From an uncultured Acidobacteriota bacterium (GTDB lineage: Bacteria > Acidobacteriota > Vicinamibacteria > Fen-336), in assembly GCA_964442185.1 (NCBI GenBank), contig CAYTWT010000331.1:156-64155 (forward strand): a stretch of 64,000 bases of DNA, read 5' to 3'. The first letter of the stretch is position 1, and every line of letters begins with the position of its first letter. A program made the position numbers and the translations under genes. Shown here piece by piece: positions 9,059 through 62,787 of this stretch. The notes below the pieces were generated by a model. The model was not told where the DNA came from. It was given only the letters and a program-made list of their open reading frames with translations, and ran no database searches.

Positions 9059-9066
9059 CCCGACGC

Positions 9067-47333: not shown

Positions 47334-47371
47334 GTGCCTTCGCGCCTCGCTCGGGAGAGCCGCCCGTAAAC

Positions 47372-47896
47372 CTATTGCGGGTTCGGATCGTCCACGAAGG
47401 CCTCGCCGTCGGGCTCCTCGCCGGGCGGCAGGCGGCCCAACTCGCTGCGCACCAGCTGCTGGTGAAGAACCTCCTCGTCGCGCAACTCGGCGAAGAGCGC
47501 GCTGACCTTGGCGTCCTTCACGTGGGGCAGGGCCGCGACGAAGAACGCGTGAGCCTTCTCTTCGCAGCATAAGGCGATGCCCAGGGCACGGCGCGCGGTC
47601 ATGAAGGCGCGGGCCTCGTCGTAGTCGGGGGCCTCGACGTCGAAGAGCATCGAGCGGCGCACCTCGCGGGGGGCGTCTCCGAACAGCTCCCGGCGGCGCT
47701 CGGCGATCTCGGCGCCGTGCTTCGCCTCGTTTTCGGCCATGAGGCGGAAGAACCTCGCCGGCTCGGGAGTGCGGTGCTGCTCCATCTGGTCGGCCAGTTC
47801 CAGATAGCGCTCGTGGGCCTCCTCCTCGATGAGCGTCGCAAGGTCGAGGGCATCCTTGAGAGAGAGCCCGGACAGTTCGAGGTTCTGGATCGTCAT
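47372..47896 (-). CDS. Ferritin-like (rubrerythrin-type diiron) protein without rubredoxin domain
   Basis: EEEAHERY...ENEAKH and EEKAHAFF...EEVLH diiron motifs; TGATG overlap with korB. Confidence 0.82.
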   Translation of the reverse strand: MTIQNLELSGLSLKDALDLATLIEEEAHERYLELADQMEQHRTPEPARFFRLMAENEAKHGAEIAERRRELFGDAPREVRRSMLFDVEAPDYDEARAFMTARRALGIALCCEEKAHAFFVAALPHVKDAKVSALFAELRDEEVLHQQLVRSELGRLPPGEEPDGEAFVDDPNPQ

Positions 47897-48795
47897 CACT
47901 GGCCTCCGGCCTTGCTGAACAGCTCGAGGATCCGCTCGCGGGGCAGCGCCTTCGGCCGGAGTTCCGCCTGGCGCTGCCGGACGAGGGCGTCGTAGCTGGG
48001 CGGCGGCTCGGGGTTCCTGTAGAAGACGCCCGTGTAGAGCTCCTTCCCGTAGTCGGACGCCAGCGCCATGGCCTTGAGACGGTCGGCGTCGTCGTGACCG
48101 AGGCTCGCCAGCGACTTCATGTGGCCCCTGTGGGCCTTGAGCTGCTGCTCCTCCTCGCCGAAAGTCACGCAGGGCGACTGGACGTTGACGAAGGCGAAGC
48201 CTGGGAAGCGGATTGCCTCCTCGATCACCGATGCCAACCCCGGCATGTCGGCCGGGGTGCCCTGGGCTACGAAACCGGCGCCGTAGGCCAGCACGTAGAG
48301 CAGCGGATTCACCGGCTCTTCCATCGAGCCGTAGCTCGAGGTGACCGTGTGGAGCCCGCGGGGCGAGGTGGGAGAGAGCTGGCCCTTGGTGAGGCCGTAG
48401 ATCTGGTTGTCCATCACGATGTAGGCGAGGTCCACGTTGCGGCGCACCGCGTGGGGGAGATGGCCGCCGCCGATCGAGAAGCCGTCGCCGTCGCCGCCGG
48501 CCACGACGACCAGTAGCTCGGGGTTTGCGATCTTGATGCCCTGGGCGATGGGCAGCGCGCGGCCGTGGACGCTGTTGAAGCCGTAGGCCGTGGTATAGCC
48601 GGGGATGCGGCTCGAGCAGCCGATGCCCGACACGAACGCGATCTCGTGGGGCGGCCGACCCACCTCCGCCAGCGCGCGGTACAGCGCCTGCAGCACGCCG
48701 AAGTCGCCGCAGCCGGGGCACCAGATCGGCTTGAGATCACTCTTGAACTGCTTGGGCTCCCCGGGCCGGGTCGGCGGCGGCAGCGTCGTGCTCAT
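47896..48795 (-). CDS. korB: 2-oxoacid:ferredoxin oxidoreductase beta subunit
   Basis: WCPGCGDFG, SGIGCSSR, HGRALP, GGDGDGFSIG, DNQIYGLTKGQ.SPT, SPCVTF. Confidence 0.93.
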   Translation of the reverse strand: MSTTLPPPTRPGEPKQFKSDLKPIWCPGCGDFGVLQALYRALAEVGRPPHEIAFVSGIGCSSRIPGYTTAYGFNSVHGRALPIAQGIKIANPELLVVVAGGDGDGFSIGGGHLPHAVRRNVDLAYIVMDNQIYGLTKGQLSPTSPRGLHTVTSSYGSMEEPVNPLLYVLAYGAGFVAQGTPADMPGLASVIEEAIRFPGFAFVNVQSPCVTFGEEEQQLKAHRGHMKSLASLGHDDADRLKAMALASDYGKELYTGVFYRNPEPPPSYDALVRQRQAELRPKALPRERILELFSKAGGQ

Positions 48796-48799
48796 CGCA

Positions 48800-50590
48800 T
48801 CACTCCTGGGGCTCGCGGGCGTCCTGGCTCTCGCCCTGCAGCGCGAGAGCGACCTGGCGCAGGTGCTCCGCCACCTCGGACGGCAGGAACGGGTTGGCGC
48901 CGCTCTTCGGGAACGAGCGCACGGCCTTCGGCAGGTCCAGAAACATGCGCAGCAGCCTGTAGAGCTGACCCTGGTGCGACTGCTCGACGACCAGGCCGGC
49001 GCGCACGGAGGCGAAGAACTCCCGGTACACCTCCTCGGCCACCGGGTACACGAGATAGGGCACGAGCAGCTTGGCTTTGAGGCCCATGGCGCGGGCATGG
49101 CTGAGGGCCTCACGGCATACTCCGGCGCTCGAGCCCCAGCTGACGATGCCCAGAGGCGCCGCCTCGTCGCCGAACACGCGGAACAGGTCGCGCCGGCGCT
49201 TGAGCGGCTCGAGCTTGTGGATGCGCTTCTCGTTCATGCGGGCGTGGATCGCGCCGCTAGCGGTCGGGGCGCCGCGCTCGTTGTGCTCGATGCCCGAGGC
49301 GAGGTAGTTGCCCCCGGGCATCCCCGGCTGGCTCAGCGGGCTGATTCCGGAGGCCGTCATCCGAAAACGCACGTAGTCCTGGAGCTCGCCCGCGCCGGGC
49401 CGCCGCCGCTCCTCGACCTCGATCGCGTCGGTATCGATGGGATCCAGGGTCTCCTTGCGCTGGGCGAGCTCCTGGTCCGAGAGCACGATCACCGGCGTCT
49501 GGTAGTGCTCGGCGATGTTGAAGGCCTGGACCGTGGTCCAGAAGGTATCGGCCACGGTGGTCGGAGCCAGCACCGGCCGCACCGCGTCGCCGTGGGCCGA
49601 AAACGCAGCCTGGTACAGGTCAGCCTGTTCCGGCTTGGTCGGCATGCCGGTCGAGGGCCCGCCGCGCTGCACGTTGACGACCACGAGGGGCAGCTCCGAA
49701 ATCGTGGCGAGGCCCATAATCTCGCTCTTCAGCGACATGCCGGGTCCCGAAGTCGCGGTCATCGCCTTCGCGCCGGCGAAGGACGCGCCCACCGCGGCCC
49801 CGATCCCCGCGATCTCGTCCTCGGCCTGCAGCACCGTGCCGCCGTACTTCCAGATCTCGCGGCTCAGGAACTGCATGATCTCGGTCGAGGGCGTGATCGG
49901 GTAGCCGCCGAAGAAGCGGCAGCCGGCGAAGATCGCCGCGGCCCCGCAGATCTCGTTACCGTCGGTGAGCAGCTTGGCCGGGGCCCGGTCTGCGGGCTTC
50001 GCCAGCGGCATTGGCTCGCGCAGCGGATGAGCGGCGCCCCAGGCCTCGCCCGCCGCGAACGCGCGCTCCGCGGACTCGAGCACCTCGGCGCCCTTCTTGG
50101 CGAGCTTCTTCCGCATCCCGTCGAGCAGGCCCTCGCGGGCCACGCCGAAGAACGCCGCAATCAGGCCGAGGATCACGCTGTTCTTGGCGCGCTCGGTGCC
50201 GGCGCTCTCCCGCGCAAGCTCGGCGATCGGGACCGCCAGCACCTCCTTCGGCGTGACGCCGACGAGCGGCAGCCTGTCTGGGAGCACACCGCTGCGCGCG
50301 TCGTAGAGCACCACCGTCGCGCCGCTGACCGGCAGCTCCGCGCCGAACTTCATGAAGTCGTCCCAGTTGAGCGCTACGGCCACGTCCAGGGCGCCGCCGG
50401 GATTCAGGATCTCGGACGTGGCGATCCGCACGCGGCAGGAGGATTCGCCGCCACGGATCTGCGAGCCGAAGCTCTTGGTCATGATCGCGTGGTAGCCCTC
50501 CGCCGCCGCAGCAGCGATCAACGACTCGCCCGCGGAGAGGATACCGTCGCCGCCCGAGCCGGCCATGCCGAAGACGAGATCAGTTCGCAT
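48800..50590 (-). CDS. korA: 2-oxoacid:ferredoxin oxidoreductase alpha subunit (gamma-alpha fusion)
   Basis: AGSGGDG, QIRGGES, YPITPSTE, EDEIAG, TATSGPG, QRGGPSTGMPT. Confidence 0.93.
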   Translation of the reverse strand: MRTDLVFGMAGSGGDGILSAGESLIAAAAAEGYHAIMTKSFGSQIRGGESSCRVRIATSEILNPGGALDVAVALNWDDFMKFGAELPVSGATVVLYDARSGVLPDRLPLVGVTPKEVLAVPIAELARESAGTERAKNSVILGLIAAFFGVAREGLLDGMRKKLAKKGAEVLESAERAFAAGEAWGAAHPLREPMPLAKPADRAPAKLLTDGNEICGAAAIFAGCRFFGGYPITPSTEIMQFLSREIWKYGGTVLQAEDEIAGIGAAVGASFAGAKAMTATSGPGMSLKSEIMGLATISELPLVVVNVQRGGPSTGMPTKPEQADLYQAAFSAHGDAVRPVLAPTTVADTFWTTVQAFNIAEHYQTPVIVLSDQELAQRKETLDPIDTDAIEVEERRRPGAGELQDYVRFRMTASGISPLSQPGMPGGNYLASGIEHNERGAPTASGAIHARMNEKRIHKLEPLKRRRDLFRVFGDEAAPLGIVSWGSSAGVCREALSHARAMGLKAKLLVPYLVYPVAEEVYREFFASVRAGLVVEQSHQGQLYRLLRMFLDLPKAVRSFPKSGANPFLPSEVAEHLRQVALALQGESQDAREPQE

Positions 50591-50619
50591 CCGCACTCCC
50601 TTGAGTCACTCCGAGCCCT

Positions 50620-50676: not shown

Positions 50677-50714
50677 AAAAGACGACGGGCGTCGGGGATC
50701 TCCCCGACGCCCGT
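50677..50714 (-). terminator. Intrinsic terminator downstream of mtrB
   Basis: Perfect inverted repeat ACGGGCGTCGGGGA-TC-TCCCCGACGCCCGT (50685-50714) followed on minus strand by CGTCTTTT. Confidence 0.8.
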
Positions 50715-50732: not shown

Positions 50733-53069
50733 TTACTGCCAGCTGTAGGTAAGCCGGACGTAGCCGACCCAGGCCTGGTAGTCGCCGTTGTCGGCCTGCA
50801 GGAAGAACGACGCCGGCATGTAGTTCAGGTTGTTCCCGGTCTGCGAGTCGTCGATCTTGTAGTCCTCGTAGCCGAGGCCGGCCGCCGCGGTCCACTGCTT
50901 GGCGAGCTGGTACTTGAGCGAGCCCCAGACCGCGGTCAGCTTGGTGTCGTCGAAGGCGGCGATGGAGCAGGGCGTCGCTCCCGTGGTCGTGCACTGGCGC
51001 AGCAGCGGGTTCGTGCCGTAGATGGTGCTGTACCCTGGTACCAGCGACACGTCGTTGTTGCCGTCGATCTTCTGGTAGCGCCCGAACAGGTTGAGGAACC
51101 ACTTCTCCGGCTGCAAGGTCACGTCGACGCCCCCGCCGAAGGTGCTGCCCTTGTTCGTGATGCTCGCGGTCCACACGTCGTTCGGGTTGAAGTTGAGCGT
51201 CGCGCCGCTCTGGCGGCCGTTCTGCAGGATATCGCCGTCCTCCCAGGTGTAGAAGGCGTACACGGTGGCGCGCTCGCCGGGCGTGTAGTTCGCCTCGACG
51301 GTGAAGGTGTCGTACTGGTCGTCGATCATGCCGAGGGGCGCCTGCTCGCCACCGGGACAAAACACCGCCTGGGTCGGGAAAGCCGCAATGTCCTCGCATT
51401 CCACCGGCTTCTGGTCGTACTCGAACTTGGTGTGGAGGTACGAGGCAAACAAGGTGGCCTTGCCCGAGCCTGGCGACAGCTCGACGGTCCCGCCGAGGCG
51501 GGTCAGGTCGCGCTTCGCCTGGTCGGAGCGGCGGAGCACGGTCTGGTTGGCGGGCAGCCCGGCCTCGAGGAAGGAGTGCTCCTCGGCCTCGACGGCGTGG
51601 TAGTTGCTGTGGTCGCGGTTGCCGAACTCGCCCAGGCCGCGCAGGACGATCCAGTCGCCGCGGTAGTCGGCGGCCACGCGGAACACGTTCTCGCTGGTGT
51701 TTTCAGCTTCGCGGAAGGTTCGCGCCACCTTGTTGTACTTGTAGCCCGCCTCGACGACGAAGGCGCCCTTGCCCAGCGTGGCGTAGGCGTCGAACACGTC
51801 GCTGGTGTATCCATAAGGAACGGTGATGCGCGGGATGTCCTCCCACACGGCGTCGAAGCGGACGTAGCCGACGGGTAGTTCATAGCGCGGCGTCTTGTTG
51901 TCGTGGTCGTAGCGGCGGTAGCGGGCGTTGAGACTCAGCGCGTCGCTGGGCCGCGTGTTGAAGAAGAAGTTCAGGGAGGTGGTGTCGATCTTGCCGTCCA
52001 GCGTCGAGGCCGGCAGCGCCGCCGTGGTGGCGGGCTGGCCGCCGGGCGTGACGATCGCGGTGTTCGTCGTCCAGGCCAGCAGCGGGTCCTCGTTCTGGCG
52101 CAGCTGGCCCAGGGTGAGGTCGGCCGTGAGACGGGTCTTCTTCCCGAACTTCAGCGTGGCGCCCACGGTTTCCATGGTTGCCTTGTTGTCGGGCGGGAGT
52201 GCCATCACGCCGAACCGCGGACCACCCTTCGAGCCGGATCCCGGCGCCGTGTAGGCCGACGGGTCGGTCGCATCCGTCGAACGGAACGGGTTGTCGAAGG
52301 AGTACGTGTCGAAAGCGTTGTGGAAGTCGTTGAACAGGACGGCCGCCCGGGCCACGCCCCACTTGCCCTTGAACGACGCGTTGACCGTGAGATCCTGGGT
52401 GATGTAGCGGACCGGCTCCGGGGTCTCGACCACGTTGCCGAAGCCGAAGGACGTGCCAGCCGCGGCGCGGGTTCCAGAGCGCCGTTCGTGGCCGTAGCTC
52501 ACACCGAGGTCGAAGTTCGAGTCCTTGGGCGTGAGGCTGAAGGCCAGGTTGGTCCGGCCGCGGAGCAGCTTCAGGTCTATGTTCGCCGGAGACGCCGCCA
52601 GACCGGGCGCCACGAGCCTGGCGAGGAAGGGGTACGTGATCGAGGCACTCGGCGCCAGCCCGATGATGCCCTGGTAGTAGGCCTGGGTGCTGTCTGCGAT
52701 CTGCCAGCTGGTGTCGGTGGTGGGGCTCAGGATGCTCTTGCCGCCGTTGCCGAAGTTGTGGGGAATCCCGACGTAACTGGCGTCGAAACGAATCATCCCG
52801 TTGTCGACGAACGCCGCGTGCTGCTGGTCCTTCTGCGTCATGTCACGCGAGCGGATGCCCCAGCGCAGCTCGCCCTTCTTGCCCGAGAAAGTGATGAGGG
52901 GCGCGACGGGGCCCTGCGGAATGTCACGGTACTCGAGGAACTTCGAGGAGTTCGTGTCGAAATCCTTCTGCAGGATCCCGAGGCTGACCTCGCCGACGTT
53001 GAAATCCTCCTGGGCGAGAACGGGCTGTGCGAGTGCGAGGACGGCGCAGGCTGAAAGAATGCGCTTCAT
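50733..53069 (-). CDS. mtrB: MtrB/PioB-family decaheme-associated outer-membrane beta-barrel (778 aa)
   Basis: Signal peptide, KFLEYRD, ETPEPVRY.T, ALPPDN, alternating beta strands, C-terminal YVRLTYSW; directly downstream of decaheme cytochrome. Confidence 0.88.
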   Translation of the reverse strand: MKRILSACAVLALAQPVLAQEDFNVGEVSLGILQKDFDTNSSKFLEYRDIPQGPVAPLITFSGKKGELRWGIRSRDMTQKDQQHAAFVDNGMIRFDASYVGIPHNFGNGGKSILSPTTDTSWQIADSTQAYYQGIIGLAPSASITYPFLARLVAPGLAASPANIDLKLLRGRTNLAFSLTPKDSNFDLGVSYGHERRSGTRAAAGTSFGFGNVVETPEPVRYITQDLTVNASFKGKWGVARAAVLFNDFHNAFDTYSFDNPFRSTDATDPSAYTAPGSGSKGGPRFGVMALPPDNKATMETVGATLKFGKKTRLTADLTLGQLRQNEDPLLAWTTNTAIVTPGGQPATTAALPASTLDGKIDTTSLNFFFNTRPSDALSLNARYRRYDHDNKTPRYELPVGYVRFDAVWEDIPRITVPYGYTSDVFDAYATLGKGAFVVEAGYKYNKVARTFREAENTSENVFRVAADYRGDWIVLRGLGEFGNRDHSNYHAVEAEEHSFLEAGLPANQTVLRRSDQAKRDLTRLGGTVELSPGSGKATLFASYLHTKFEYDQKPVECEDIAAFPTQAVFCPGGEQAPLGMIDDQYDTFTVEANYTPGERATVYAFYTWEDGDILQNGRQSGATLNFNPNDVWTASITNKGSTFGGGVDVTLQPEKWFLNLFGRYQKIDGNNDVSLVPGYSTIYGTNPLLRQCTTTGATPCSIAAFDDTKLTAVWGSLKYQLAKQWTAAAGLGYEDYKIDDSQTGNNLNYMPASFFLQADNGDYQAWVGYVRLTYSWQ

Positions 53070-53077
53070 GGCCCCTC

Positions 53078-53989
53078 CTATCGCCCGAGGTACGGCGCGG
53101 TCGGCGCGTTGCCGCCGTGCACGTTCTGGTGGCAGTTCTTGCACGCGTGCTCGACCGCGCGGTTGCTGGCGGTCGCCGCCGTGCCGGTGGCGTTGATGCC
53201 GGTGTAGAGCGTGCCGGGATGCCGCGTGTTCAGGTGGCAGCGCTGGCAGAGCCAGGGTTGCTGCGAGACGAGCATCTTGTCGTGGTTCGAGCCGTGCGGG
53301 TTGTGGCAGTTCAAGCAGTTCTCCCGTACCGGCGCGTGCTCCCAGAAGAACGGACCGCGCTTCTCGGTGTGGCACTTCAGGCAGAGGTCGTTGTTGACGT
53401 CGGCCTTGATCATCTTCGGCCGGCTGCCGTCGTGGGGGTTGTGGCAGCTGGTGCAGGTCATCAGGCCTTCACGGACCGGATGATGCGAAGTGCGCAGGCT
53501 CTGGGCCCGGATCGCGCTGTGGCAGGTGTAGCAGGTCTCAGGCTCGTTCGCCGTCTTCAGCTGAGCCTTGGGCGACTTGAAGGCGTGAACGGAGTGGCAG
53601 GAGATGCAGCTGACGTCGCGCCGGTCGTGGGCGCTGCCCTTCCAAGTCGGGTGGTTGCCGTCCTCGTGGCAGCTCAGGCAGGTGTTATTCGCCTCCTGCG
53701 GGCTGAGTTTCTTGAAGGAAGGCGCGGGCGCGTCGCTCCGGCCCTCCGCCTGTGCGTCGGCGTGCTCGGCCGCGCCGGCGTGGCAGGCTGCGCACGCCTG
53801 GGCGATCCCGGCGTGTGGGCTGCGCGTGAACGCGTTGGTGAAGGCGTTGTCCTGATGGCAGGCCTGACAGGTCGAGACATCCACCGGTGGTGCGTTTTCC
53901 TGGGCACTCGCCGCGGACGTGCACAGGGCCAGCACACCGAAGGACGCCGCGACGGTCAGGACCATCGCCGCGAGATCCCGGTATCGCAT
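53078..53989 (-). CDS. mtrA: DmsE/MtrA/MtoA-family periplasmic decaheme cytochrome c (303 aa)
   Basis: Ten CxxCH; SHHPVREG.M.C.SCHNPH, CHTEKRGPFFWEHAPV.E.C.NCHNPHGS, NCHQNVHG.N; signal peptide; ATG 53989 after GGAG. Confidence 0.93.
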   Translation of the reverse strand: MRYRDLAAMVLTVAASFGVLALCTSAASAQENAPPVDVSTCQACHQDNAFTNAFTRSPHAGIAQACAACHAGAAEHADAQAEGRSDAPAPSFKKLSPQEANNTCLSCHEDGNHPTWKGSAHDRRDVSCISCHSVHAFKSPKAQLKTANEPETCYTCHSAIRAQSLRTSHHPVREGLMTCTSCHNPHDGSRPKMIKADVNNDLCLKCHTEKRGPFFWEHAPVRENCLNCHNPHGSNHDKMLVSQQPWLCQRCHLNTRHPGTLYTGINATGTAATASNRAVEHACKNCHQNVHGGNAPTAPYLGR

Positions 53990-54451
53990 GCTCACTCCTC
54001 CTTCTTTCCTCGACCGGCCCGCAATTCCTTCGCGGCCGTGCCGCAGGTACTGCAGGCGGGTGTTGTCAAGGCCGACACTGGAACCGAGATGGTATAGGCG
54101 AAGCCCTGTCGGACGAAGGGCTTTCCGACCTCTTTCGGCCTTGGGTTCGGATTGGTTCCCCAGAGCATCGTCGTACTCGGGCAACAGAAGCAAGATTCGG
54201 ACCTGAACGGACGCCAACCATGGATCTTCTCCAAGCTACTGGCGTGAGTCCTCCATATAGGGTTTGTCATGCCTTGCCCCTCCGAGCGCCGGAATGAACG
54301 ATGAACCTTCCGGATCAGGCTAGACGCGTCCCGGTTCCCGAGCAATAGTTCAAATGCGCCAGGCGGACTTGCCCTTCGCTCCCGAGCCTTCGGCGAGCGC
54401 TTCGACAGCTACGGCGAGGCGAGAATGGAATTGTTCGGGTAGGCTTACATC

Positions 54452-55780
54452 GTGATGGCTGCCGACGCGATTGGGCCCGCTCGTTCTCGTAGCGGGCGCC
54501 GTGTCCGGGATCGGCGACGGGATGATTCAGGGCGTCCGGCGCGCGGCGCTCGACCCCGCCCGGGTTCGCTCCAGGGAGGCGGCGTCAGAGGCAGCCTCTT
54601 CTCCATCGCGTTTTCGCTCGTCGGGCTGGGGGCCGGGGCCGCCGGCCCGACGGACGCGGACTGCATGGCCTGCCACGACGGCGTCTCGCTCGGCTCGTCG
54701 ATCCACGCCCAGGCGGGCCTGTCCTGCCTGGATTGCCACTCCGACCTCGCGAGCCTGAAGGAGCTTCCCCACGCCGAGAAACTGGCTCCCGCCAACTGTG
54801 CGGCCTGCCACGAGGACGCGGCGGGCAAGCACGCCATGGGCGTTCACGCCCGGGCTATCGATGCCGGGCGCAAGGGCGCCCGCTGCACCGACTGCCACGG
54901 CGCCGGGCACGGCGTGCTGCCCGCGAGCGACCCGCAGTCGCCGACCAACCACTTCAACGTCCCCCGGACCTGCGCGCAGTGCCACGGCGGCAAGGCGGGC
55001 CCCGCTTCCCGCTTCGAGGACTCGATCCACGGCAAGGCCCTGGCGAAGAGCGGGCTCAAGGTCGCCCCCAACTGCGCGACCTGCCACGCGGCCCACGACG
55101 TCAAGGACCCTCGGGACGAGAGCAGCCCGGCGTACCACGCCAACGTGCCGAAGACCTGCGGCTCGTGCCACGAGGGCATCGTGGCGCGTTACGAAACGAG
55201 CGTCCATGGCAAGGCCGTCGCAGGCGGAAACGCGCGGGCAGCCGTCTGCACCGACTGCCACTCGGCCCACGCGATCCGCGACGTCGGCGTGCCGGCGTGG
55301 AAGCTCGAGGTGCTGAGCGAGTGTGGGACGTGCCACAGCCATTCCCTCAAGACCTACCGCGATGGTTTCCACGGTCAGGCCTCGGCGCTGGGCTTCACGC
55401 GGGTGGCGGCTTGTGCCGACTGCCACGGGTCCCACGACATCCTGCCGGTGTCGGACCCGGGCTCGCGGGTGGCGAAGGCGAACCTGGTCCAGACCTGCGG
55501 CCGTTGTCACGCCGGGGCCAATGAGAGTTACGTGAAGTACGACCCCCACGCCCGGCCCCACGACAAGGACCGCAGCGCACCGGTGTACTACACCACGCTG
55601 TTCATGCAGGTACTGCTGGCCGCCGTGTTCTCCTTCTTCGGCCTGCACGTGGCGCTCTGGTTTCCGAAGGAGATTCGTGTGCGACGCGAGCGAGCCATGG
55701 TGCTGGCCGCCACGAAGCCCGAAGCGCCCGAAGCCCCTGTCCAGGAGGACGAGAAGGATGGCGACGAGCCTCCCCGCTGA
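54452..55780 (+). CDS. Membrane-anchored 11-heme cytochrome c (CbcA / CbcL c-domain-like)
   Basis: Eleven CxxCH; repeated S.HG.A....A.C.DCH..H.I units; C-terminal TM (LFMQVLLAAVFSFFGLH); start uncertain. Confidence 0.88.
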   Translation: MMAADAIGPARSRSGRRVRDRRRDDSGRPARGARPRPGSLQGGGVRGSLFSIAFSLVGLGAGAAGPTDADCMACHDGVSLGSSIHAQAGLSCLDCHSDLASLKELPHAEKLAPANCAACHEDAAGKHAMGVHARAIDAGRKGARCTDCHGAGHGVLPASDPQSPTNHFNVPRTCAQCHGGKAGPASRFEDSIHGKALAKSGLKVAPNCATCHAAHDVKDPRDESSPAYHANVPKTCGSCHEGIVARYETSVHGKAVAGGNARAAVCTDCHSAHAIRDVGVPAWKLEVLSECGTCHSHSLKTYRDGFHGQASALGFTRVAACADCHGSHDILPVSDPGSRVAKANLVQTCGRCHAGANESYVKYDPHARPHDKDRSAPVYYTTLFMQVLLAAVFSFFGLHVALWFPKEIRVRRERAMVLAATKPEAPEAPVQEDEKDGDEPPR

Positions 55781-56609
55781 CCCGGCCCGCAGCCACGTCC
55801 GGCGCTTCGGCCTGGCCGAGCGGCTACTGCATGGCCTGCTCATGTTCAGCTTCCTCGGGCTGGGTCTGACGGGGCTCCCGCTCCTCTTCGCGGAGGCATC
55901 CTGGGCCGCGATCATGGCCGGGCTGGTCGGCGGCTACGGGGTCACGAGCGTCCTGCACCGGATCTTTGCGACGCTGATGATCAGCCTGTTCGCGGCGCAC
56001 CTCGCCCGACTCCTGCACCGGCTCTACGTGAAGAAGGAGCTGGGGATCCTGTGGGGGACCGACTCGCTCGTGCCGCAGCCCCGGGACGTGACCCAGATGG
56101 CCCAGCACTTCCGCTGGTTCGTGGGGCTGGGTCCCCGCCCCGATTTCGGCCGCTTCAGCTACTGGGAGAAGTTCGACTACTGGGCAGTGTTCTGGGGCAT
56201 GGGAGTGATCGGGGGCTCGGGGCTGATGCTCTGGTTCCCGGGGGTCTTCGCCAGGTTTCTGCCTGGCTGGATGTTCAATGTGGCCTTCGTTGTCCACGGC
56301 GAGGAGGCTTTACTCGCGACGATGTTCATCTTCACCGTGCACTTCTTCAACGGGCACCTGCGGCCCGAGAAGTTTCCCATGGACACCGTCATCTTCACGG
56401 GAAGCACGAGCCTCGAGGAATTCCGCCACGAGCGCCCAGCCGAGTACGCGGCTCTGATTACCTCGGGCAAGCTGGACGCGGTCCTGGTGCCACCGCCCGC
56501 ACCGCTGGTCCTGCTCGCGGGCCGAATCGTGGGCAGCATCGCGGTCCTGCTGGGGCTGCTGATGGTCTTCCTGACCGTGCGCGCTGTTGTTACGCTCTCT
56601 CCGGGCTAG
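55758..56609 (+). CDS. Di-heme cytochrome b (FdnI/HydC-type; CbcB / CbcL b-domain-like)
   Basis: His ligands in RLLHG, LHRIFA, VVHGEEALLA, FTVHFF; F.YWEKFDYWAVFWG; overlaps upstream cytochrome gene. Confidence 0.88.
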   Translation: MATSLPADPARSHVRRFGLAERLLHGLLMFSFLGLGLTGLPLLFAEASWAAIMAGLVGGYGVTSVLHRIFATLMISLFAAHLARLLHRLYVKKELGILWGTDSLVPQPRDVTQMAQHFRWFVGLGPRPDFGRFSYWEKFDYWAVFWGMGVIGGSGLMLWFPGVFARFLPGWMFNVAFVVHGEEALLATMFIFTVHFFNGHLRPEKFPMDTVIFTGSTSLEEFRHERPAEYAALITSGKLDAVLVPPPAPLVLLAGRIVGSIAVLLGLLMVFLTVRAVVTLSPG

Positions 56610-56615
56610 GCGGGG

Positions 56616-56631
56616 TGGCCCGAAATTTGCT
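56616..56631 (+). promoter_or_regulatory. sigma54 (-24/-12) promoter
   Basis: TGGCCCGAAATTTGCT matches TGGCACG-N4-TTGCW with one mismatch; AAGGAGG SD and ATG 56661 follow. Confidence 0.75.
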
Positions 56632-56660
56632 CTTCCGCACAAAATAAAGGAGGCCGTCCA

Positions 56661-56945
56661 ATGAAGAAGTGGAGAATCATGGGCGTCGCGGTTGGCTTCG
56701 GACTCGGTGCCCTCATCGTCGCGGCGCCACTCGCGCACGCGAGCATGGACATCCAGAAGGCCGCAAAGGCGGCCGGCGTCCAGGTCGCAAACTGCATGCA
56801 CTGCCACGTCGACAAGCTGCCCAAGAAGGGCGCCGCGACGATGAACGACGTCGGCAAGTGGCTGGTCGCCGAGAAGGACACGCGCAAGGTCCAGAAGATC
56901 GACGGCGCCTGGCTCAAGGACTACAAGGTCCCGGAGCAGAAGTAG
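56661..56945 (+). CDS. Small exported monoheme cytochrome c
   Basis: Signal peptide ending PLAHA-S; single CMHCH; Lys-rich mature domain of about 67 aa. Confidence 0.75.
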   Translation: MKKWRIMGVAVGFGLGALIVAAPLAHASMDIQKAAKAAGVQVANCMHCHVDKLPKKGAATMNDVGKWLVAEKDTRKVQKIDGAWLKDYKVPEQK

Positions 56946-57026
56946 CCGGTCGGTCCTCAGCAATTGCCGCCCCGGAGCTCCGGGTAGGAGTGCGCCCGGA
57001 GTTCCGTCGGCGGTCCTGGAGCTTTC

Positions 57027-58457
57027 ATGTCCTTCTTCGAGCGCAGTCTGGGCCGCACGCGGCCCATCCTTTTCCTGCTTCGCAACAACACGAGCCTGGC
57101 CGGGGCGGCGCTCACGACGGCCGCCAGCCTGACCCTGATCCTGTTCTGGGTGCTGTCGCTCGCGCGTGGCGGGCATGCCCACACTTACGGCGGGCTGCTC
57201 TTCATCGTCATCCTGCCGACCCTGTTTCTGCTGGGCCTGGTGCTGATTCCCATCGGCATGTTGCGTCGCTTTCGCGAGTTGCGGCGCACGCGCGAGTTAC
57301 CCGCCGAGTACCCGCCCTTGGACCTGCGGGATCCGCTGCTGGCCCGCGCCGGCTCGCTGTTCTTCGTGCTCACCTTCGCAAACTTCGGGATCCTGGGCGT
57401 GTCGTCCTATCACGGCCTCGAGTACATGGACTCGACGGAGTTCTGCGGCCTGAGCTGCCACACGGTGATGGCCCCCGAATACGCCGCCTACTTGAACTCG
57501 CCCCACTCGCGAGTGGCGTGCGTCGAGTGCCACATCGGGCCGGGCGCTGGGTGGTTCGTGCGCTCCAAGCTCGACGGCACGCGCCAGGTGATCGCCGTCG
57601 CTCTGGGCACGTACTCGCGGCCGATCCCGTCGCCCGTCGAGCACCTGCGGCCCGCGCGCGAGACGTGCGAGCAGTGCCACTGGCCCCAGAAGTTCCACGG
57701 CGACCGGCTGGTGGTGCGGAAGAAGTACGCCGACGACGAGAACAACAGCGAGACCGTGACGGCCCTGGTGCTGAAGGTCGGCGGCCAGGACGCCCGCGGC
57801 AACCGCGGCATCCACGGGCGTCACCTGGACGACGGGTCGCGCATCACCTACCTGGCCGACGCCCGGCGCGAGACCATCCCCTGGGTGAGCTACGTGGACG
57901 ACTCGGGCCAGAGCGTCGAGTACGTCGCGGGCGATGGCAAGCCGCCCGAAGGCGAGCGCCGCCAGATGGACTGCGTCGACTGCCACAACCGGCCGACCCA
58001 CGCGTTCCAGCTGCCGGAGCGCGCGGTCGACGAGGCGCTGGCCGCGGGCCGCATGAGCCCGCGCCTGCCGTGGCTCAAGAAGCAGGCCGTGGCCCTGTTG
58101 CGCGCCGAGTACCCGGATCAGGAGACGGCCCTGAGGCGCATCCCCGAGGGCCTCGACCGTTACTACCGCGAGCAGCACGCCGAGGTGTACGCGAAGGAGC
58201 GCGCCCTCGTCGAGCAGGCGGGGAAGGCCGCGGCGGCGATCTACGGCCGTAACGTGTTCCCGAACATGAAGGTCACCTGGGGCACCCATCCGAACCACAT
58301 CGGCCACCAGGACTTTGCCGGCTGCTTCCGCTGCCACGACGACAATCACAAGAGCCGGGATGGCCGGGTGATCAGCCAGGACTGCAACGCCTGCCACAGC
58401 ATCCTGGCCATGGACGAGAGCGACCCGAAGGTCCTGGCCGACCTCGGGCTCAAGTAG
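57027..58457 (+). CDS. imcH: ImcH-like NapC/NirT-domain inner-membrane multiheme cytochrome (6 heme motifs)
   Basis: Three N-terminal TMs; FCGLSCHTVM.PEY, SPHSRVACVECHIGPGA.WFV.SKL, LRPARETCEQCHWP, CVDCHNRP.H, CFRCH, CNACH. Confidence 0.8.
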   Translation: MSFFERSLGRTRPILFLLRNNTSLAGAALTTAASLTLILFWVLSLARGGHAHTYGGLLFIVILPTLFLLGLVLIPIGMLRRFRELRRTRELPAEYPPLDLRDPLLARAGSLFFVLTFANFGILGVSSYHGLEYMDSTEFCGLSCHTVMAPEYAAYLNSPHSRVACVECHIGPGAGWFVRSKLDGTRQVIAVALGTYSRPIPSPVEHLRPARETCEQCHWPQKFHGDRLVVRKKYADDENNSETVTALVLKVGGQDARGNRGIHGRHLDDGSRITYLADARRETIPWVSYVDDSGQSVEYVAGDGKPPEGERRQMDCVDCHNRPTHAFQLPERAVDEALAAGRMSPRLPWLKKQAVALLRAEYPDQETALRRIPEGLDRYYREQHAEVYAKERALVEQAGKAAAAIYGRNVFPNMKVTWGTHPNHIGHQDFAGCFRCHDDNHKSRDGRVISQDCNACHSILAMDESDPKVLADLGLK

Positions 58458-58479
58458 TCGAAGAGCTGGCGTCGGCCGT

Positions 58480-58518
58480 AGCCGTCGTCGGGGCGCGTCC
58501 GCCGACCCAGGCACGGCT
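58480..58518. terminator. Hairpin between convergent imcH-like and DUF2339-like genes
   Basis: AGCCGT/ACGGCT outer and GTCGG/CCGAC inner arms; no U-tract. Confidence 0.3.
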
Positions 58519-58541
58519 CATCGGCGAAAGGCTATCTCACC

Positions 58542-60290
58542 TCATTCGCTCCGGCGCAGCAGCCGTGGCGCCGCGATCAGCGCGGCGCCGTAGACGACGA
58601 AGCTCAAGAAGAGTGCGGCGGCGCGGCCCGCGGGCAGGTCCTCCGCCAGCAGCTTCAGCCCGCCCAGGGCGAGGAGCGGATAGACGAGCCAGCCCAGCTC
58701 GACGAGGGCGAAGCGGCGACTGGCCGCGGCCAGGCCCACGGCCAGCATCGCGAGCGCGCCGCTGCGGAGCGTCGCGACGGCGGCGGGCCGCCCTGCAACG
58801 CCTAGCAACTGCGCGGCCTCGGCGACGAGGAGCCCCGCGACCAGCCAAGCAGAAAGGGCGGCCGCGACAGCATGGGGGAGGCGCTTCCAGCCGCTGATGG
58901 CGCGATCTGCCGCCAGCACCCGGTAGCACGCCAGGGCAGCTGCCGCGCTGAACCAACCGAAAACCTCTAGGAACTCGACCCGGGGTGCACTGAGGAGGTC
59001 GCGGGTCGCCGTGCCCAAGGCGCCGCTCGAAACGACCGCTGCACAGAGGAAGACGACACCGTGGGCGCGCAGCGTCATGCGATCGAGGCTGCGTCCCAAC
59101 CACACGCCGGCCAGGCCCAGCCCCGACCACACAAGGGCGCGGCCGCCGGCCCCGAGCAGCACGCTGCTCTCGAGCAGGACCAGCACGCCACCCGCGGTCG
59201 AGTAGAAGTAGAAGTTCCTCGCCTGCCCGAGCCGCCGCTCGACGTAGACGAAGGCGACGGCGTAGCCGAGGAGGCCGAGCAGGGAACCTGCGAGGCCGAG
59301 CGCCAGCCCCGAGCCACCGCTGGCCGCCCAGATCCGCTCTGCGCCAAGGAACCCGAGGGCCAGGGCCGCGCTTCCCTGCATCACGTCGAAGGTCCCCACG
59401 GCCCGCTCGAGCCGCAAGGTTCGCGTCGCGATGCTGATGAGGTACACGGCAGGTAGGGCGAGGGCGCCCGCGGCCGCGGCGACGGGGTGGATGGGCGGGT
59501 AACCCTCGGGGAGGCCCGACGGGCGGCCCGCGAGCCAGGCCAGCACGAGTACAGCCACATCCAGGGCCAGCGCCGGCACGAAGCGGAGGCCGGGCCACGG
59601 GCCGTGGAGCGCGACGGCCTCGACCAGCGCGGCGATCGTGAGCAGCGCGAGAATCGCGGGGAGCAGCTCCTGCGTCGCGACCAGCAGCGCCGCGGCCGTC
59701 ACGACGGCCACGCAGGTCCCGGTCCAGAGCAGCAACCACAAACGGTGGCGCGTCGCCACGGCCGCTCCCGCCGCGAACACTCCGACGAGGGCCGCGAGTG
59801 CTCCGGAAGGCGCCAGGATCCCGAGCCGCGTGCTCGTCTCCCACAGAAGCGGATAGGCGATGAGAACGGACGCGAGAGCGTGGAAGTCGGCCCGCAGCGT
59901 CTGGCCGCCAGCCGCCGCCCGGTCGGCCAACAGCGTGAAGAGAAGGGCATAGGCGAGCCCGAGTGCGACGCCGCCTATGGGCGATAGCATCCCGGCGTCG
60001 GTCAGCGCCCGGATCAGATAGGCGCCGGCCAGCGCCAGGACCGTTTGCCCGGACAGCGCGAGCAACCCGGGGCCAGAGTCGGCGGCCGGCAAACCCTCAG
60101 CCGACGTGGCTCGGGCTCTGGCGGGAGCCGCCTCGAGCAGCGCTTCGGCTGTCACCGCTGGCGCGGGGACGGCCGCCGCGGGGGCGAGACTGCTCGCGGC
60201 CTCGATGGCGCCCACACGCGCCGCGACGCGGGCAAGCTCCTGCTCCAGGGCTGCGAGCCGCACCTCGGTCGGGTCGAGCGGGTTCCGCAT
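58542..60290 (-). CDS. Polytopic membrane protein (DUF2339-like)
   Basis: N-terminal coiled coil (RLAALEQELARV), Pro/Ala linker, G..VLALAGAYLIR, YPLLWE, about 17 hydrophobic segments. Confidence 0.6.
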   Translation of the reverse strand: MRNPLDPTEVRLAALEQELARVAARVGAIEAASSLAPAAAVPAPAVTAEALLEAAPARARATSAEGLPAADSGPGLLALSGQTVLALAGAYLIRALTDAGMLSPIGGVALGLAYALLFTLLADRAAAGGQTLRADFHALASVLIAYPLLWETSTRLGILAPSGALAALVGVFAAGAAVATRHRLWLLLWTGTCVAVVTAAALLVATQELLPAILALLTIAALVEAVALHGPWPGLRFVPALALDVAVLVLAWLAGRPSGLPEGYPPIHPVAAAAGALALPAVYLISIATRTLRLERAVGTFDVMQGSAALALGFLGAERIWAASGGSGLALGLAGSLLGLLGYAVAFVYVERRLGQARNFYFYSTAGGVLVLLESSVLLGAGGRALVWSGLGLAGVWLGRSLDRMTLRAHGVVFLCAAVVSSGALGTATRDLLSAPRVEFLEVFGWFSAAAALACYRVLAADRAISGWKRLPHAVAAALSAWLVAGLLVAEAAQLLGVAGRPAAVATLRSGALAMLAVGLAAASRRFALVELGWLVYPLLALGGLKLLAEDLPAGRAAALFLSFVVYGAALIAAPRLLRRSE

Positions 60291-60353
60291 CAGTCATCCT
60301 CCGCGGGGGCGCCGCCTAGATCGCCCCGGCGCACTGGGCGGTCTGGAGGGCCC

Positions 60354-61544
60354 TCAGGCCTCCGCGCTCACGCCACCCTCTGCCGCCTTCGGCCACGGAG
60401 GCAGCAGCTTGACGAGGCCCCACAGGATCACCAGCGGCAGGAGGAGCAGGATCAGCGCCGGCAACAGCCCCTCGCGGGTCGCAAAGGCCATCTTGTACGA
60501 TGTGTACCCAAGGTAGCTCTTCGAGAAGAGCTGTCCGCCGATCACCACGTTCCAGCGCATCGCAAAGATGCCGACCAGGGTCAGGATGCCGGCGAGGCCG
60601 TACAGGTGGACCCGGTCGCGCTCCGCCAGGCGCACCACCTGTACGAAGGCGAGGATCGCGATGGGCGCCAGCGTGCCGAGGACGATCTGCAGGATCACCT
60701 GCGAGCCATAAAGGCGCGTGTGCACCATGAAGTCGAGGGACTTGAAGGACTCGTCGGCCTCGTAGATGCGGTGGAGCAAGTCCAGCATCTCGAGGGAGAA
60801 GTCGATGACGAAGGCGTAGAGCAGGTAGCGGGCGATGGTGTCGACGCACTCCATCTGGATCGCCTCCCGTTTGGCCCACGAGACGAGCATGTACATGAGC
60901 AGGACCAGGGCGATCCCCGAAACGATCGCCGAGAACAGGAACACGATGGGCATGAGGGGCGTCGACCACCACGGGTTCGCCTTGATCGAGCCGAAGATGA
61001 AGCCCACGTATCCGTGGAGCAGGAAGGCCGAGGGGACCCCCACCAGCGTGACGAGCCAGCCGACGCGCTCGTCGACTTTCAGCGCCCCTTCGCTGATGTT
61101 GTCGGAGCCCAGCGTGAGCAGCCGGTAGACGCTCCGCAGCGCTCCGCTGCTGCTGCGCGAGAGCAGCACGATGTCCTTGCGGTAGTCGAGCCAGATCTCC
61201 AGGAGCAGCACGACCATCAGGTACCAGAGATAGACGAAGCCGAACATCGCCATCGCCGACGAGGTGTGCGGCGTCAGGTACATCTCCAGGGAGCGTTCGG
61301 GGTGACCCAGGTGCAGTTGCAGCGGCAGCGGGGCCACCAGCATGAACGCGAGCGCCGTCAGCAGCGAGAGCCGGTAGGTGGGCTTCACGGCCTCTACCTT
61401 GAAGACGCGCTCGAGCGAAGCCAGGATGAACGCCCCGGCCACGAGCCCGGTGATGAAGGGATACAGCACGATCAGGACGCTCCACTGGAGCTCCAGTTCG
61501 TTCGGGTACATGTAGCCGTCGACGCCTGAGATCAGGCCCTGCAT
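60354..61544 (-). CDS. nrfD: NrfD/PsrC-family quinone-interacting membrane subunit (CbcU-like)
   Basis: WSVLIVLYPFITGLVAG, HLGHPER, HGYVGFIF, NPWWSTP, MRWNVVIGGQ. Confidence 0.9.
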   Translation of the reverse strand: MQGLISGVDGYMYPNELELQWSVLIVLYPFITGLVAGAFILASLERVFKVEAVKPTYRLSLLTALAFMLVAPLPLQLHLGHPERSLEMYLTPHTSSAMAMFGFVYLWYLMVVLLLEIWLDYRKDIVLLSRSSSGALRSVYRLLTLGSDNISEGALKVDERVGWLVTLVGVPSAFLLHGYVGFIFGSIKANPWWSTPLMPIVFLFSAIVSGIALVLLMYMLVSWAKREAIQMECVDTIARYLLYAFVIDFSLEMLDLLHRIYEADESFKSLDFMVHTRLYGSQVILQIVLGTLAPIAILAFVQVVRLAERDRVHLYGLAGILTLVGIFAMRWNVVIGGQLFSKSYLGYTSYKMAFATREGLLPALILLLLPLVILWGLVKLLPPWPKAAEGGVSAEA

Positions 61545-61553
61545 CGCTTCACC

Positions 61554-62315
61554 TCACCGCACGGAGCCGTCGAGGCCGTTGTAGTAGACCTTGGCGCCAG
61601 TGGCCATTTGCGGCTTCAGCACCTGGATCATGTGGGTGCGCAGGTACTCGTGGACCGGATCGTTCGGGTCCTTCAGGTCGACCAGGGTGCGGGCAGCTGT
61701 GGGGCAGGTCTCGCAGCAGGCCGTGGTGAGCCCCTTCGTGATGCGGTGGTAGCACAGCGAGCACTTGTCCACCGTCTGGGAGTTGGGATCGATGAAACGG
61801 CAGCCGTACGGGCAGGCATGGACGCAGTAGCGGCAGCCGAGGCAGTACTTCTTGTCCACCAGCACCACGCCGTCGGGGCTCTCGAAGGTGGCGCCCACGG
61901 GGCAGACCTGAACGCAGGGCGAGTGCGCGCAGTGGTTGCATAGCTTGGGCACGAAGAAGTTCTTCGAGCCGTCGCCCGAGCGGTACTTCTCCCGGAAGCC
62001 GTCGTAGCCTCCGTTGGGCGAGTCCACCTCCGGGTGCTCGATGTCGGCGCCGGGGACGTGGTAGCGCTCGACCCAGGTGCGGAAGTAGAAAGGATCCTTC
62101 GGGACGCCGTTCTCCTCCTTGCAGGCCTGCACGCAGTTGCCGCATCCGATGCACGCCTCCACGTCGATGATCATTCCCCACCAATGGTCGGTGGCCGTGT
62201 AATTCGGAGCCGCCGTCGGCTCGCCGGCCAGCACGTGCTCGAGCGCCGCGCTGGCCGCGCCGGTGAGGAGCAGGAACTTGCCACCCTGGATCAGGAACTC
62301 CCTGCGATCGCTCAT
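61554..62315 (-). CDS. Tat-exported 4x[4Fe-4S] protein (NrfC/TtrB/CbcT-like)
   Basis: DRREFL twin-arginine signal; CIGCGNC..AC, CNHC..SPCV.VCP, CLGCRYC..ACPY, KCSLC...CC.TCP. Confidence 0.92.
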   Translation of the reverse strand: MSDRREFLIQGGKFLLLTGAASAALEHVLAGEPTAAPNYTATDHWWGMIIDVEACIGCGNCVQACKEENGVPKDPFYFRTWVERYHVPGADIEHPEVDSPNGGYDGFREKYRSGDGSKNFFVPKLCNHCAHSPCVQVCPVGATFESPDGVVLVDKKYCLGCRYCVHACPYGCRFIDPNSQTVDKCSLCYHRITKGLTTACCETCPTAARTLVDLKDPNDPVHEYLRTHMIQVLKPQMATGAKVYYNGLDGSVR

Positions 62316-62325
62316 CGGCTCTCCC

Positions 62326-62787
62326 TCAGAGCTTCGGCGAATGGGGCTTGTGACATTCGAGGCAGGTCCCCGGCTCCGCGTGGTCCTTCGGGCTCACCTG
62401 CGGGAAGCCTGCGGGCTTTGCCACGTTCGACGCATGACAGGTGAGGCACAGTGCGGCCGTGGGCCGGGCGGGCTTGCCGGCCGACTCGTCACCGGCGGCG
62501 TGACGCGCCAGGGCGCCGTGGCAGGCCTCGCACGAAACCCGCTCGTGCTTGCTCTTCTTGCGGGCCTCTACAACGTCTGCGTGGCAGTCCTCACAGACGG
62601 CATGCCCCGCGAAGGACACCGGCCGTGCGCGGTTCTCCTCCAGGGAGTCGGCCCGATAGTGGCCGTACAGCCCGAAGCTCGCGGGGACGAGGAAGGCCTT
62701 GAGCACCAAGAAGACGACCAGGCCGGCCGCGAACAGGCCCAAGACCCGGAGGAGATGCTCGTAGTCCCCGAAGCGGTCTCCCTTCAT
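62326..62787 (-). CDS. Membrane-anchored tetraheme cytochrome c (CbcS-like)
   Basis: N-terminal TM, P.SFG.YGHYR; CEDCH, CEACH, CLTCH, CLECH; ATG 62787. Confidence 0.85.
   Translation of the reverse strand: MKGDRFGDYEHLLRVLGLFAAGLVVFLVLKAFLVPASFGLYGHYRADSLEENRARPVSFAGHAVCEDCHADVVEARKKSKHERVSCEACHGALARHAAGDESAGKPARPTAALCLTCHASNVAKPAGFPQVSPKDHAEPGTCLECHKPHSPKL

Follow-up and report, generated by a model that had tools for sequence, protein, structure and literature searches.

The 64,000-nucleotide window analysed here, the whole stretch of DNA taken from contig CAYTWT010000331.1 (assembly GCA_964442185.1) of an uncultured Acidobacteriota bacterium, carries at positions 50733-62787 a dense group of cytochrome genes that the original prediction had taken for one self-contained supercluster of extracellular electron transfer (EET). 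According to our analysis, this region is not one co-inherited cluster but a mosaic, in which three transcription units have each had a history of their own. Unit 1 encodes a decahaem cytochrome c and an outer-membrane porin, unit 2 an 11-haem cytochrome c, a cytochrome b, a small monohaem cytochrome c and an ImcH-type cytochrome, and unit 3 a trio of tetrahaem, iron-sulfur (FeS) and NrfD subunits together with a DUF2339-like protein. We consider it fairly probable that within this mosaic units 1 and 2 wire the quinone pool to the cell surface, with outward electron flow being favoured.

Since the G+C content of the window is 67-72%, a codon-position filter was applied to the listing of open reading frames (ORFs) in order to separate real genes from spurious ones, and ten genes were assigned to the region. 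The predicted genes, their coordinates and their 32 haem motifs were recovered by motif scan and hidden Markov models (HMMs), with the refinement that the sum of 10+11+1+(5 CXXCH + 1 CX3CH)+4 consists of 31 CXXCH motifs and one CX3CH motif. What the earlier inventory had missed is the DUF2339-like gene of 582 codons at 58542-60290. Elsewhere in the window only three ORFs of at least 60 amino acids in six frames contain even one CXXCH motif, and for this reason the concentration in 50733-62787 is not due to chance. There is no further multihaem ORF, hence no adjacent gene of the MtrC/OmcA type, in any frame of the 64 kb. The related loci found for the porin, the ImcH-type protein and NrfD come without exception from metagenome-assembled genomes (MAGs), nearly all of them bearing the label Acidobacteriota, and binning errors probably account for the few with another label. 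The labels of the nearest loci are Acidobacteriota or Vicinamibacteria and the 14 porin-related loci are all from Acidobacteriota MAGs, the best match being 90% identical, which agrees with the lineage that had been proposed from the sequence.

Separate histories of the three units

In the MAGs with the closest relatives the three units are unlinked (related loci are cited here by L numbers). In L002 (porin 90%, decahaem 94% identical) and L180 (77%), unit 1 is surrounded by unrelated genes and an ImcH operon is not within reach. Unit 2 is intact in L015-L017 (ImcH 77-86% identical), where neither a decahaem-porin pair nor an NrfD trio is present within 10 kb. The nearest relatives of unit 3, in L178 and L179 (89% identity), are followed by unrelated genes, and neither unit 1 nor unit 2 is found there. 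Insertion scars and repeats were sought around the decahaem-porin pair, and only haem-motif codons and a terminator hairpin turned up.

The genes of units 1 and 2 do meet repeatedly in more distant genomes. A profile scan for the ImcH-type protein was run over 185,579 species genomes, and the best 80 loci, which were examined, are all from Acidobacteriota. Neighbourhoods were counted within 10-kb flanks in the 51 loci that have 6 kb or more on either side. A module of multihaem cytochrome c plus cytochrome b (c+b module) was present in 30/51 of them and a decahaem gene in 29/51, with at least one of the two in 44/51. Around the monohaem gene, 46 loci with full flanks had a decahaem gene within 10 kb in 37 cases (about 3 kb upstream), an ImcH gene in 27 and a cytochrome b module in 26. 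The usual order, with all genes co-directional, is decahaem, porin, monohaem (1-3 copies), one or two c+b modules and imcH (for example L019, L022, L185, L191, L196 and L201), and versions of this arrangement with a porin of the MtrB/PioB type are found in L003, L004, L018, L200, L236, L250 and L253. Many others have a large ORF outside the MtrB/PioB assignment of Pfam. From this recurrent synteny we infer that units 1 and 2 would be functionally linked. The window is a rearranged instance of a recurrent acidobacterial gene set, in which unit 1 is inverted.

In Terriglobia-type loci, Pfam does not assign the large ORFs after the decahaems to MtrB/PioB, three of them having no match and that of L019 a weak one to Porin_4, and these clusters therefore seem to use another porin family. 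The Terriglobia-type loci L066, L069 and L090, among others of their kind, were seen to carry, at about 6200-9900 and on one strand, a decahaem, an ORF of 680-870 amino acids that matches nothing in Pfam, one or two class I monohaem cytochromes c (PF13442) and imcH. This order looks like a second acidobacterial porin-cytochrome type, with a porin outside Pfam MtrB/PioB.

Unit 3 follows another pattern. It is transcribed convergently with the ImcH operon, tail to tail, and its NrfD keeps 72-79% identity in every class of Acidobacteriota. Among 80 NrfD loci the trio is complete in 79 and the DUF2339-like gene follows nrfD in 49; beyond these four genes no further conserved neighbour was found in the 80 loci. 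ImcH-type genes lie nearby in 3/80 and a decahaem gene in 1/80, and none of the 51 ImcH loci with full flanks contains the trio (0/51). Because unit 3 is found throughout the phylum, has EET genes near it in so few loci (3/80) and is missing from the ImcH loci, it appears to be a quinone module of housekeeping-like character that simply borders on unit 2. We posit that its adjacency here would have come about by lineage-specific rearrangement, and that it is a separate, phylum-wide quinone module resembling Cbc4 and DsrJOP and not a dedicated part of the pathway.

The same observations bear on the idea that all of the approximately 12 kb, the trio included, is one selected and self-contained supercluster with three potential-specific entry points at the inner membrane. 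The units do physically adjoin in the window, the trio does have the architecture of Cbc4 (CbcSTU), and the adjacency is repeated in a few loci (L080, L098, L118 and L170). However, besides the convergent transcription, the conservation of the trio across the phylum, its scarcity near ImcH and decahaem genes and the unrelated neighbours of its nearest relatives, Geobacter cbcS mutants are, according to the literature, not impaired in Fe or Mn reduction. The potential specificity would moreover be an extrapolation from Geobacter, and a "multi-potential" pathway finds no support in our data. We therefore regard the supercluster as very unlikely. Of the earlier assignment to CbcSTU, the architecture of the trio stands, and the synteny, with EET genes nearby in 3/80 loci, speaks against a dedicated link of the trio to EET.

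The predicted outer-membrane conduit and the inner-membrane modules

The porin of unit 1 (50733..53069, minus strand) has 778 amino acids and a Sec signal and belongs to the MtrB/PioB family of outer-membrane beta-barrels. It scores 210.8 bits against PF11854 (MtrB_PioB; gathering score 23, E 5e-62), which is present in all 120 listed porin homologues, and 161 bits against TIGR03509, under the stricter cut-off of 240 of that model. The porin sequence had no match in the PDB. Its AlphaFold2 (AF2) model, built with 46 homologues (pLDDT 80.8, pTM 0.74), has 26 strands of at least 8 residues. Foldseek gave MtrB (6R2Q_B) as the top PDB match of this model, with E 7.3e-39 and TM-scores of 0.71 (TMq) and 0.85 (TMt); the runners-up were TonB-dependent receptors with a TM-score of about 0.36.

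The decahaem cytochrome c (53078..53989, minus strand; 303 amino acids, Sec signal, ten CXXCH) belongs to the MtrA/MtoA/DmsE family of periplasmic cytochromes. Its gene ends at 53078 and the porin gene starts at 53069 on the same strand, leaving 8 nucleotides between them, and this adjacency is kept in 14/14 related loci. It scores 244.9 against TIGR03508 (cut-off 192.2), and its residues 31-301, with all ten CXXCH motifs, align to the solved MtrA (6R2Q_A, E 2.9e-55). With 303 amino acids, the protein is without the long N-terminal extension that PioA has. These family matches and the modelled fold support the assignment of the pair as a putative MtrAB-type conduit, in agreement with the original prediction. 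As no surface cytochrome of the MtrC type is encoded in the 64 kb, the conduit would be of the two-component MtoAB/PioAB type. A hairpin resembling an intrinsic terminator lies directly after the porin stop (50685..50714, minus strand; stem of 13 pairs, 11 of them G-C, with a T-rich tail; arms of 14 nucleotides with perfect complementarity in the repeat analysis) and closes the two-gene unit ahead of the genes for a 2-oxoacid:ferredoxin oxidoreductase (OFOR). On the other side, 462 bp of divergent intergenic sequence (53990..54451) separate the decahaem gene from the 11-haem gene and presumably hold the promoters of both. Scans of the region, this interval included, for a sigma-70 consensus and for Rfam families gave no match.

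Unit 2 begins with the gene of the 11-haem cytochrome c (54452..55780, plus strand; 11 CXXCH and one C-terminal transmembrane (TM) helix), which overlaps by 23 nucleotides, in a different frame, with that of a dihaem cytochrome b resembling FdnI and HydC (55758..56609, plus strand). The cytochrome b scores 30.3 against PF01292, just above the cut-off of 30.1, and weakly matches FdnI (1KQF_C). At least 98% of 107 homologues retain its residues His25, His67, His81, His180 and His195. Three of its TM segments are strong (27-45, 62-80 and 261-279) and two weaker ones were recognised by reading the sequence (about 140-160 and 170-197), giving five in all. Together with the one helix of the c gene this makes six, as in the architecture of CbcL, MtrH and MtoC. 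The last haem spacings of the 11-haem protein, 25/30/28, equal those of MtoC (Galf_2006) of Gallionella ES-2, while CbcL has 28/43/28.

Adjoining ImcH-type genes of Acidobacteriota, 57 homologous c/b pairs were found, 33 as a single ORF and 24 split, and the Holophagales orthologues in L048 and L052 have both parts in a single ORF. As 33 of the 57 pairs are one ORF, the pair in the window can be read as the split form of a fused protein. The alternative that a single gene has been broken by a sequencing frameshift was rejected, the split being kept in L015-L017 at 72-84% identity. The two genes are thus supported as a split quinol dehydrogenase of the CbcL/MtrH/MtoC type, with halves resembling CbcA and CbcB, in line with the CbcL/CbcBA-type module proposed before. 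The window pair differs from CbcL, MtrH and MtoC in not being a single polypeptide. Its architecture, a c subunit with a C-terminal helix and a separate dihaem b subunit, resembles that of CbcBA, the haem number being 11 compared with 7 in CbcA.

Two side observations were made on these modules. The 11-haem protein has an Arg-rich N-terminus of about 45 residues (54452-54590, plus strand) ahead of a hydrophobic segment; no ATG, GTG or TTG start is present nearer to this segment, and relatives are annotated with shorter N-termini. In addition, many acidobacterial ImcH loci have two different c+b modules side by side (L028, L038, L040, L041, L044, L045, L061, L089, L093, L094 and others), one of the window type, usually split, and the other a distant fused CbcL-like paralogue with a cytochrome b that is about 30-36% identical.

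The last gene of unit 2 (57027..58457, plus strand) encodes the ImcH-type inner-membrane cytochrome c of 476 amino acids. It has three N-terminal TM helices (22-40, 56-74 and 108-126), followed by a region that matches PF03264 (NapC/NirT; E 9.6e-13, residues 112-197). The first of its six haem motifs is CX3CH (C140-x3-C144-H145) and the others, at 165, 214, 316, 433 and 453, are CXXCH. The CX3CH motif is a hallmark of ImcH. The spacing of 24/49/102/117/20 is close to the 24/49/106/117/20 of GSU3259 in the published motif table, and the C-terminal seventh motif of Geobacter is absent. ImcH has been defined by three N-terminal TM helices and a subsequent NapC/NirT-like region (PMC4251993, PMC6295460), and the family list takes proteins with 6-10 motifs, including some with six from Geothrix, Anaeromyxobacter, Solibacter and Acidobacterium (PMC6295460). 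The Geothrix ImcH has the same length of 476 amino acids and its last three motifs at the same positions (316/433/453), and proteins of Holophagaceae and Holophagales, the former including Geothrix as a listed ImcH host, are 50-56% identical. More than 7,500 homologues were found, and there is a weak match to NrfH (2J7A). The helices, the NapC/NirT homology, the CX3CH motif and the near-equal spacing support the predicted ImcH-type identity of this 6-haem protein.

Between the cytochrome b and the ImcH-type gene lies that of a small secreted monohaem cytochrome c (56661..56945, plus strand; 94 amino acids, about 66 when mature, one CMHCH). It had no match in Pfam, NCBIfam or the PDB, the last having been searched to E 10 with nothing relevant found. 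The family, which has no name, is narrow: it forms 137 clusters among 1.84 billion representatives, and its 151 relatives in genomes are nearly all from Acidobacteriota, with one Gemmatimonadota MAG in the scan. The relatives (L001, L002, L004, L013, L015-L022 and L181-L259) often come in 2-3 tandem copies, and in L001, L004, L013 and L181 they lie directly downstream of the porin. Lys55, Trp84, Lys86 and Tyr88 are among the invariant residues; no Met or second His is conserved as a distal haem ligand. With MtoD, the class I monohaem cytochrome c of Sideroxydans, the protein shares no similarity, and what the two have in common is a position downstream of the porin, found in the relatives only. 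The solved MtoD structure was, we assume, in the PDB copy searched, in which case the monohaem protein shows no similarity to it.

The trio of unit 3 is encoded on the minus strand and shows the gene order of Cbc4, that is, an anchored tetrahaem cytochrome c, a Tat-exported protein with four [4Fe-4S] clusters and NrfD. The tetrahaem cytochrome, in the CbcS position (62326..62787), has 153 amino acids, four CXXCH motifs and an N-terminal TM anchor. The ferredoxin-type subunit, in the CbcT/DsrO/PsrB position (61554..62315), has PF13247, four Cys clusters and a Tat motif (RREFL). It matches PsrB (2VPW_B) with E 3.6e-40, and its scores against TtrB, DsrO and NrfC are all below the cut-offs; the same is true of the NrfD and DsrP equivalogs. 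The integral membrane subunit, in the CbcU position (60354..61544), belongs to the NrfD/PsrC family of quinone-interacting proteins (PF03916, E 1e-37), and a sequence search of the PDB with it gave no match; an exact look-up of this NrfD in the assembly index likewise found no record. The DUF2339-like polytopic membrane protein (58542..60290, minus strand; 582 amino acids) has no Pfam match, PF10101 being present in some of its homologues. Its AF2 model (pLDDT 90.8) consists of an N-terminal cytoplasmic helix, a disordered linker and then about 19 helices, and a fold search with this model found no structural neighbour in the PDB. This protein may be a fourth subunit of the trio complex.

Proposed direction of electron flow and competing readings

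We posit that the ImcH-type protein and the split bc cytochrome of the CbcL/MtoC type exchange electrons with menaquinol at the inner membrane, that the secreted monohaem protein of about 66 residues may relay them over the periplasm, and that the MtrA-like decahaem, sitting inside a 26-strand MtrB-like barrel, would carry them across the outer membrane. An outward direction is favoured because quinol oxidation is the sole role to which ImcH has been tied and because the neighbourhood holds nothing lithoautotrophic. The host would then be a heterotroph respiring Fe(III), Mn(IV) or humic acceptors, with hardware that is reversible.

Inward transfer is a serious rival, though we hold it to be possible rather than probable. 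Here, the region would encode an Fe(II)- or Mn(II)-oxidizing or electron-uptake pathway of the Mto/Pio type, in which electrons from extracellular Fe(II) enter through the decahaem in the porin and are handed on by the monohaem, in the manner of MtoD, either to the CbcL/MtoC- and ImcH-type proteins for quinone reduction or to a terminal oxidase. The conduit is indeed two-component, like MtoAB and PioAB, with no partner of the MtrC type in the 64 kb. The monohaem just past the porin in L001, L004, L013 and L181 reproduces the order mtoA-mtoB-mtoD, the spacing of the c half is that of MtoC from Gallionella ES-2, unlike Geobacter CbcL, and PioAB homologues have been reported in Acidobacteria in the literature. 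However, ImcH homologues have so far been linked solely to quinol oxidation in reducers (PMC6295460), and in a comparable survey the MAGs bearing porin-cytochrome complexes (PCCs) were mostly heterotrophs (PMC13264449). Furthermore, no carbon-fixation or oxidase genes are among the genes of the 64-kb window, and the monohaem protein has no sequence similarity to any solved structure. Another reading dispenses with minerals altogether. The decahaem-porin pair might serve a reductase encoded elsewhere for a soluble substrate that is extracellular or inaccessible from the periplasm, as DmsEF does for DMSO reductase, while the inner-membrane cytochromes feed ordinary periplasmic reductases. The top HMM of the decahaem does carry the DmsE family name, modules of the NapC/NirT and FdnI types serve many periplasmic reductases, and the best scores of the FeS subunit are those against TtrB, DsrO and NrfC. 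Yet these equivalog scores all lie far under the cut-offs, neither the window nor the related loci have a molybdoenzyme or other catalytic subunit next to the pair, and the conserved partners are cytochromes only, so that we consider this reading very improbable.

Several points weigh against a quinone-to-surface pathway with outward flow. The two-component, MtoAB-like conduit with a small monohaem cytochrome is the architecture of known Fe(II) oxidizers. In the closest relatives the conduit lies apart from the inner-membrane operon, so that co-function of the two has to be deduced from more distant genomes. The membership of the ImcH-type and CbcL-type proteins in their families is suggested by architecture, motif spacing and published tables. 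That the monohaem protein is a periplasmic shuttle, functionally analogous to MtoD, is a guess from gene position, and the protein has no recognizable distal haem ligand and no similarity to MtoD. Finally, the trio does lie near ImcH or decahaem genes in the distant locus L080 and in the NrfD loci L098, L118 and L170, and a loose functional tie of unit 3 to the EET genes is conceivable.

Known systems, genomic setting and implications

Among arrangements described so far, the window comes nearest not to a hybrid of Shewanella and Geobacter but to the Mto cluster found in Gallionella ES-2 and Dechloromonas, together with the mtr cluster of Rhodoferax. The original prediction held that model organisms do not bring these parts together in a single locus. 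This is true of imcH, which is monocistronic in Geobacter (PMC4251993), but not of mtoAB and mtrAB, for which Gallionella, Dechloromonas and Rhodoferax have clusters that also contain CbcL-family MtoC/MtrH and MtoD (PMC6295460). In Gallionella capsiferriformans ES-2 and Dechloromonas aromatica RCB, the Mto cluster (mtoA, mtoB, mtoD, mtoC) resembles the window in its decahaem and MtrB/PioB-family porin, with no requirement for MtrC, and in having in the same locus a small monohaem cytochrome c and a CbcL-family module of multihaem c and dihaem b, the last four haem motifs of the window protein being spaced identically to those of MtoC. It differs in that the window has the c and b halves in two genes, with 11 haems instead of 9, in the presence of an ImcH-type protein instead of CymA, in the monohaem protein, which is from an unrelated acidobacterial family, in the conduit being divergent from the inner-membrane operon, and in the phylum. 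The mtrABC cluster of Rhodoferax ferrireducens has two copies of cymA and mtrH (PMC6295460), and thus, like the window, more than one enzyme at the quinone pool. In a 2018 survey, mtrAB or mtoAB were never found next to imcH (PMC6295460); in the larger MAG collections used here, by contrast, genes of these types do adjoin.

Compared with ImcH of Geobacter sulfurreducens (GSU3259), with which it shares the three N-terminal TM helices, the NapC/NirT-like region, the leading CX3CH and near-equal spacing, the window protein has six haems instead of seven, lacking the C-terminal one as do the homologues of Geothrix, Anaeromyxobacter and Solibacter. Its gene is the last in a four-gene operon, unlike the monocistronic imcH of Geobacter, and the copies in relatives are often beside porin-cytochrome genes. 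The c+b pair resembles Geobacter CbcL (GSU0274) in combining a periplasm-facing multihaem c with a HydC/FdnI-like dihaem b and six TM helices in total, and CbcBA (GSU0593/0594) in its c subunit anchored by a C-terminal helix and its separate b subunit. Its 11 haems compare with 9 in CbcL and 7 in CbcA, its spacing is nearer to MtoC than to CbcL, and its genes are co-transcribed with the ImcH-type gene. The trio is like Geobacter Cbc4 (CbcSTU, GSU0068-0070), DsrJOP and modules of the HmcABC type by architecture, with the same gene order and no catalytic subunit; it departs from Cbc4 in its conserved fourth gene (DUF2339-like), its phylum-wide, housekeeping-like conservation and the lack of EET linkage in most genomes. 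With Shewanella MtrCAB (6R2Q) the window shares a decahaem that aligns to MtrA and a porin model that superposes on MtrB with 26 strands and a TM-score of 0.85 by MtrB length. In contrast to Shewanella there is no MtrC/OmcA gene and no CymA, and the porin has 778 amino acids as against the 649 residues of the solved MtrB chain, with 19% identity when structurally aligned.

EET in Acidobacteriota had been called little characterized, but clusters of this type have already been described. ImcH homologues have been known in Acidobacteria since 2014 (PMC4251993). In 2026, a study of cave and groundwater MAGs reported clusters of a small decahaem and a porin that also encode ImcH- or NapC-like cytochromes (PMC13264449), and a preprint described conserved, expressed EET clusters, EET1 and EET2, in Terriglobia (bioRxiv 10.64898/2026.05.27.727921). 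The group 2 PCCs of the former, 6/8 of which also encode ImcH-like or NapC/NirT-like inner-membrane cytochromes (PMC13264449), and EET1/EET2 resemble the window in the small decahaem beside a large porin, with Acidobacteriota among the hosts. Neither study describes the split CbcL-type pair, the monohaem family or the cluster order in Vicinamibacteria and Thermoanaerobaculia, and in the literature we found no description of operonic coupling between ImcH-type and CbcL-type genes, of a split CbcL-type form or of the monohaem family.

The remainder of the window is Vicinamibacteria-like core chromosome, with genes for UvrA, RlmN, TilS, FtsH, CdaA, PdxJ, UppS, RseP, peptidase M1 and XdhC. The OFOR genes (47899-50596, minus strand) are located directly downstream of the porin. 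OFOR genes were seen beside EET-type cytochrome genes in several non-syntenic arrangements (the window, L204, L015-L017, L003 and L246), and in L204 (6876-9600) korAB genes 66-69% identical to those of the window come right after the monohaem gene. Shared OFOR synteny with L015-L017 was considered as a sign of an mtrAB insertion and rejected, as the OFORs are different paralogues of about 30% identity. An ORF with a VapB-antitoxin domain (47020-47517, minus strand) is situated between the peptidase M1 gene and that of the oxidoreductase beta subunit, and in L179, a close relative, a VapB-PIN pair adjoins the tetrahaem gene.

With the component families, the acidobacterial ImcH homologues and, from the MAG work of 2026, the general cluster type already known, the gain from the present analysis is modest. 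It consists in the NrfD trio as a separate, housekeeping-like unit with a conserved partner, in the c+b pair recognized as a split MtoC/CbcL, and in the small monohaem family, which can be used as a lineage-specific marker. We tentatively suggest that Acidobacteriota, especially Thermoanaerobaculia and Vicinamibacteria, may own a conserved EET set of decahaem, porin, monohaem (1-3), CbcL-type bc cytochrome and co-transcribed ImcH, in which the 66-residue monohaem would act as a dedicated periplasmic link. If true, this would be a wiring logic unlike the separately encoded, potential-specific branches of Geobacter, in a phylum dominating soils. In soil, Acidobacteriota rank among the most abundant bacteria, and respiration or oxidation of metals has been demonstrated for very few of them. 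A recurrent set of MtrAB-type and ImcH-/CbcL-type genes would provide markers for the cycling of iron, manganese and humic substances in soil, together with a testable pathway.

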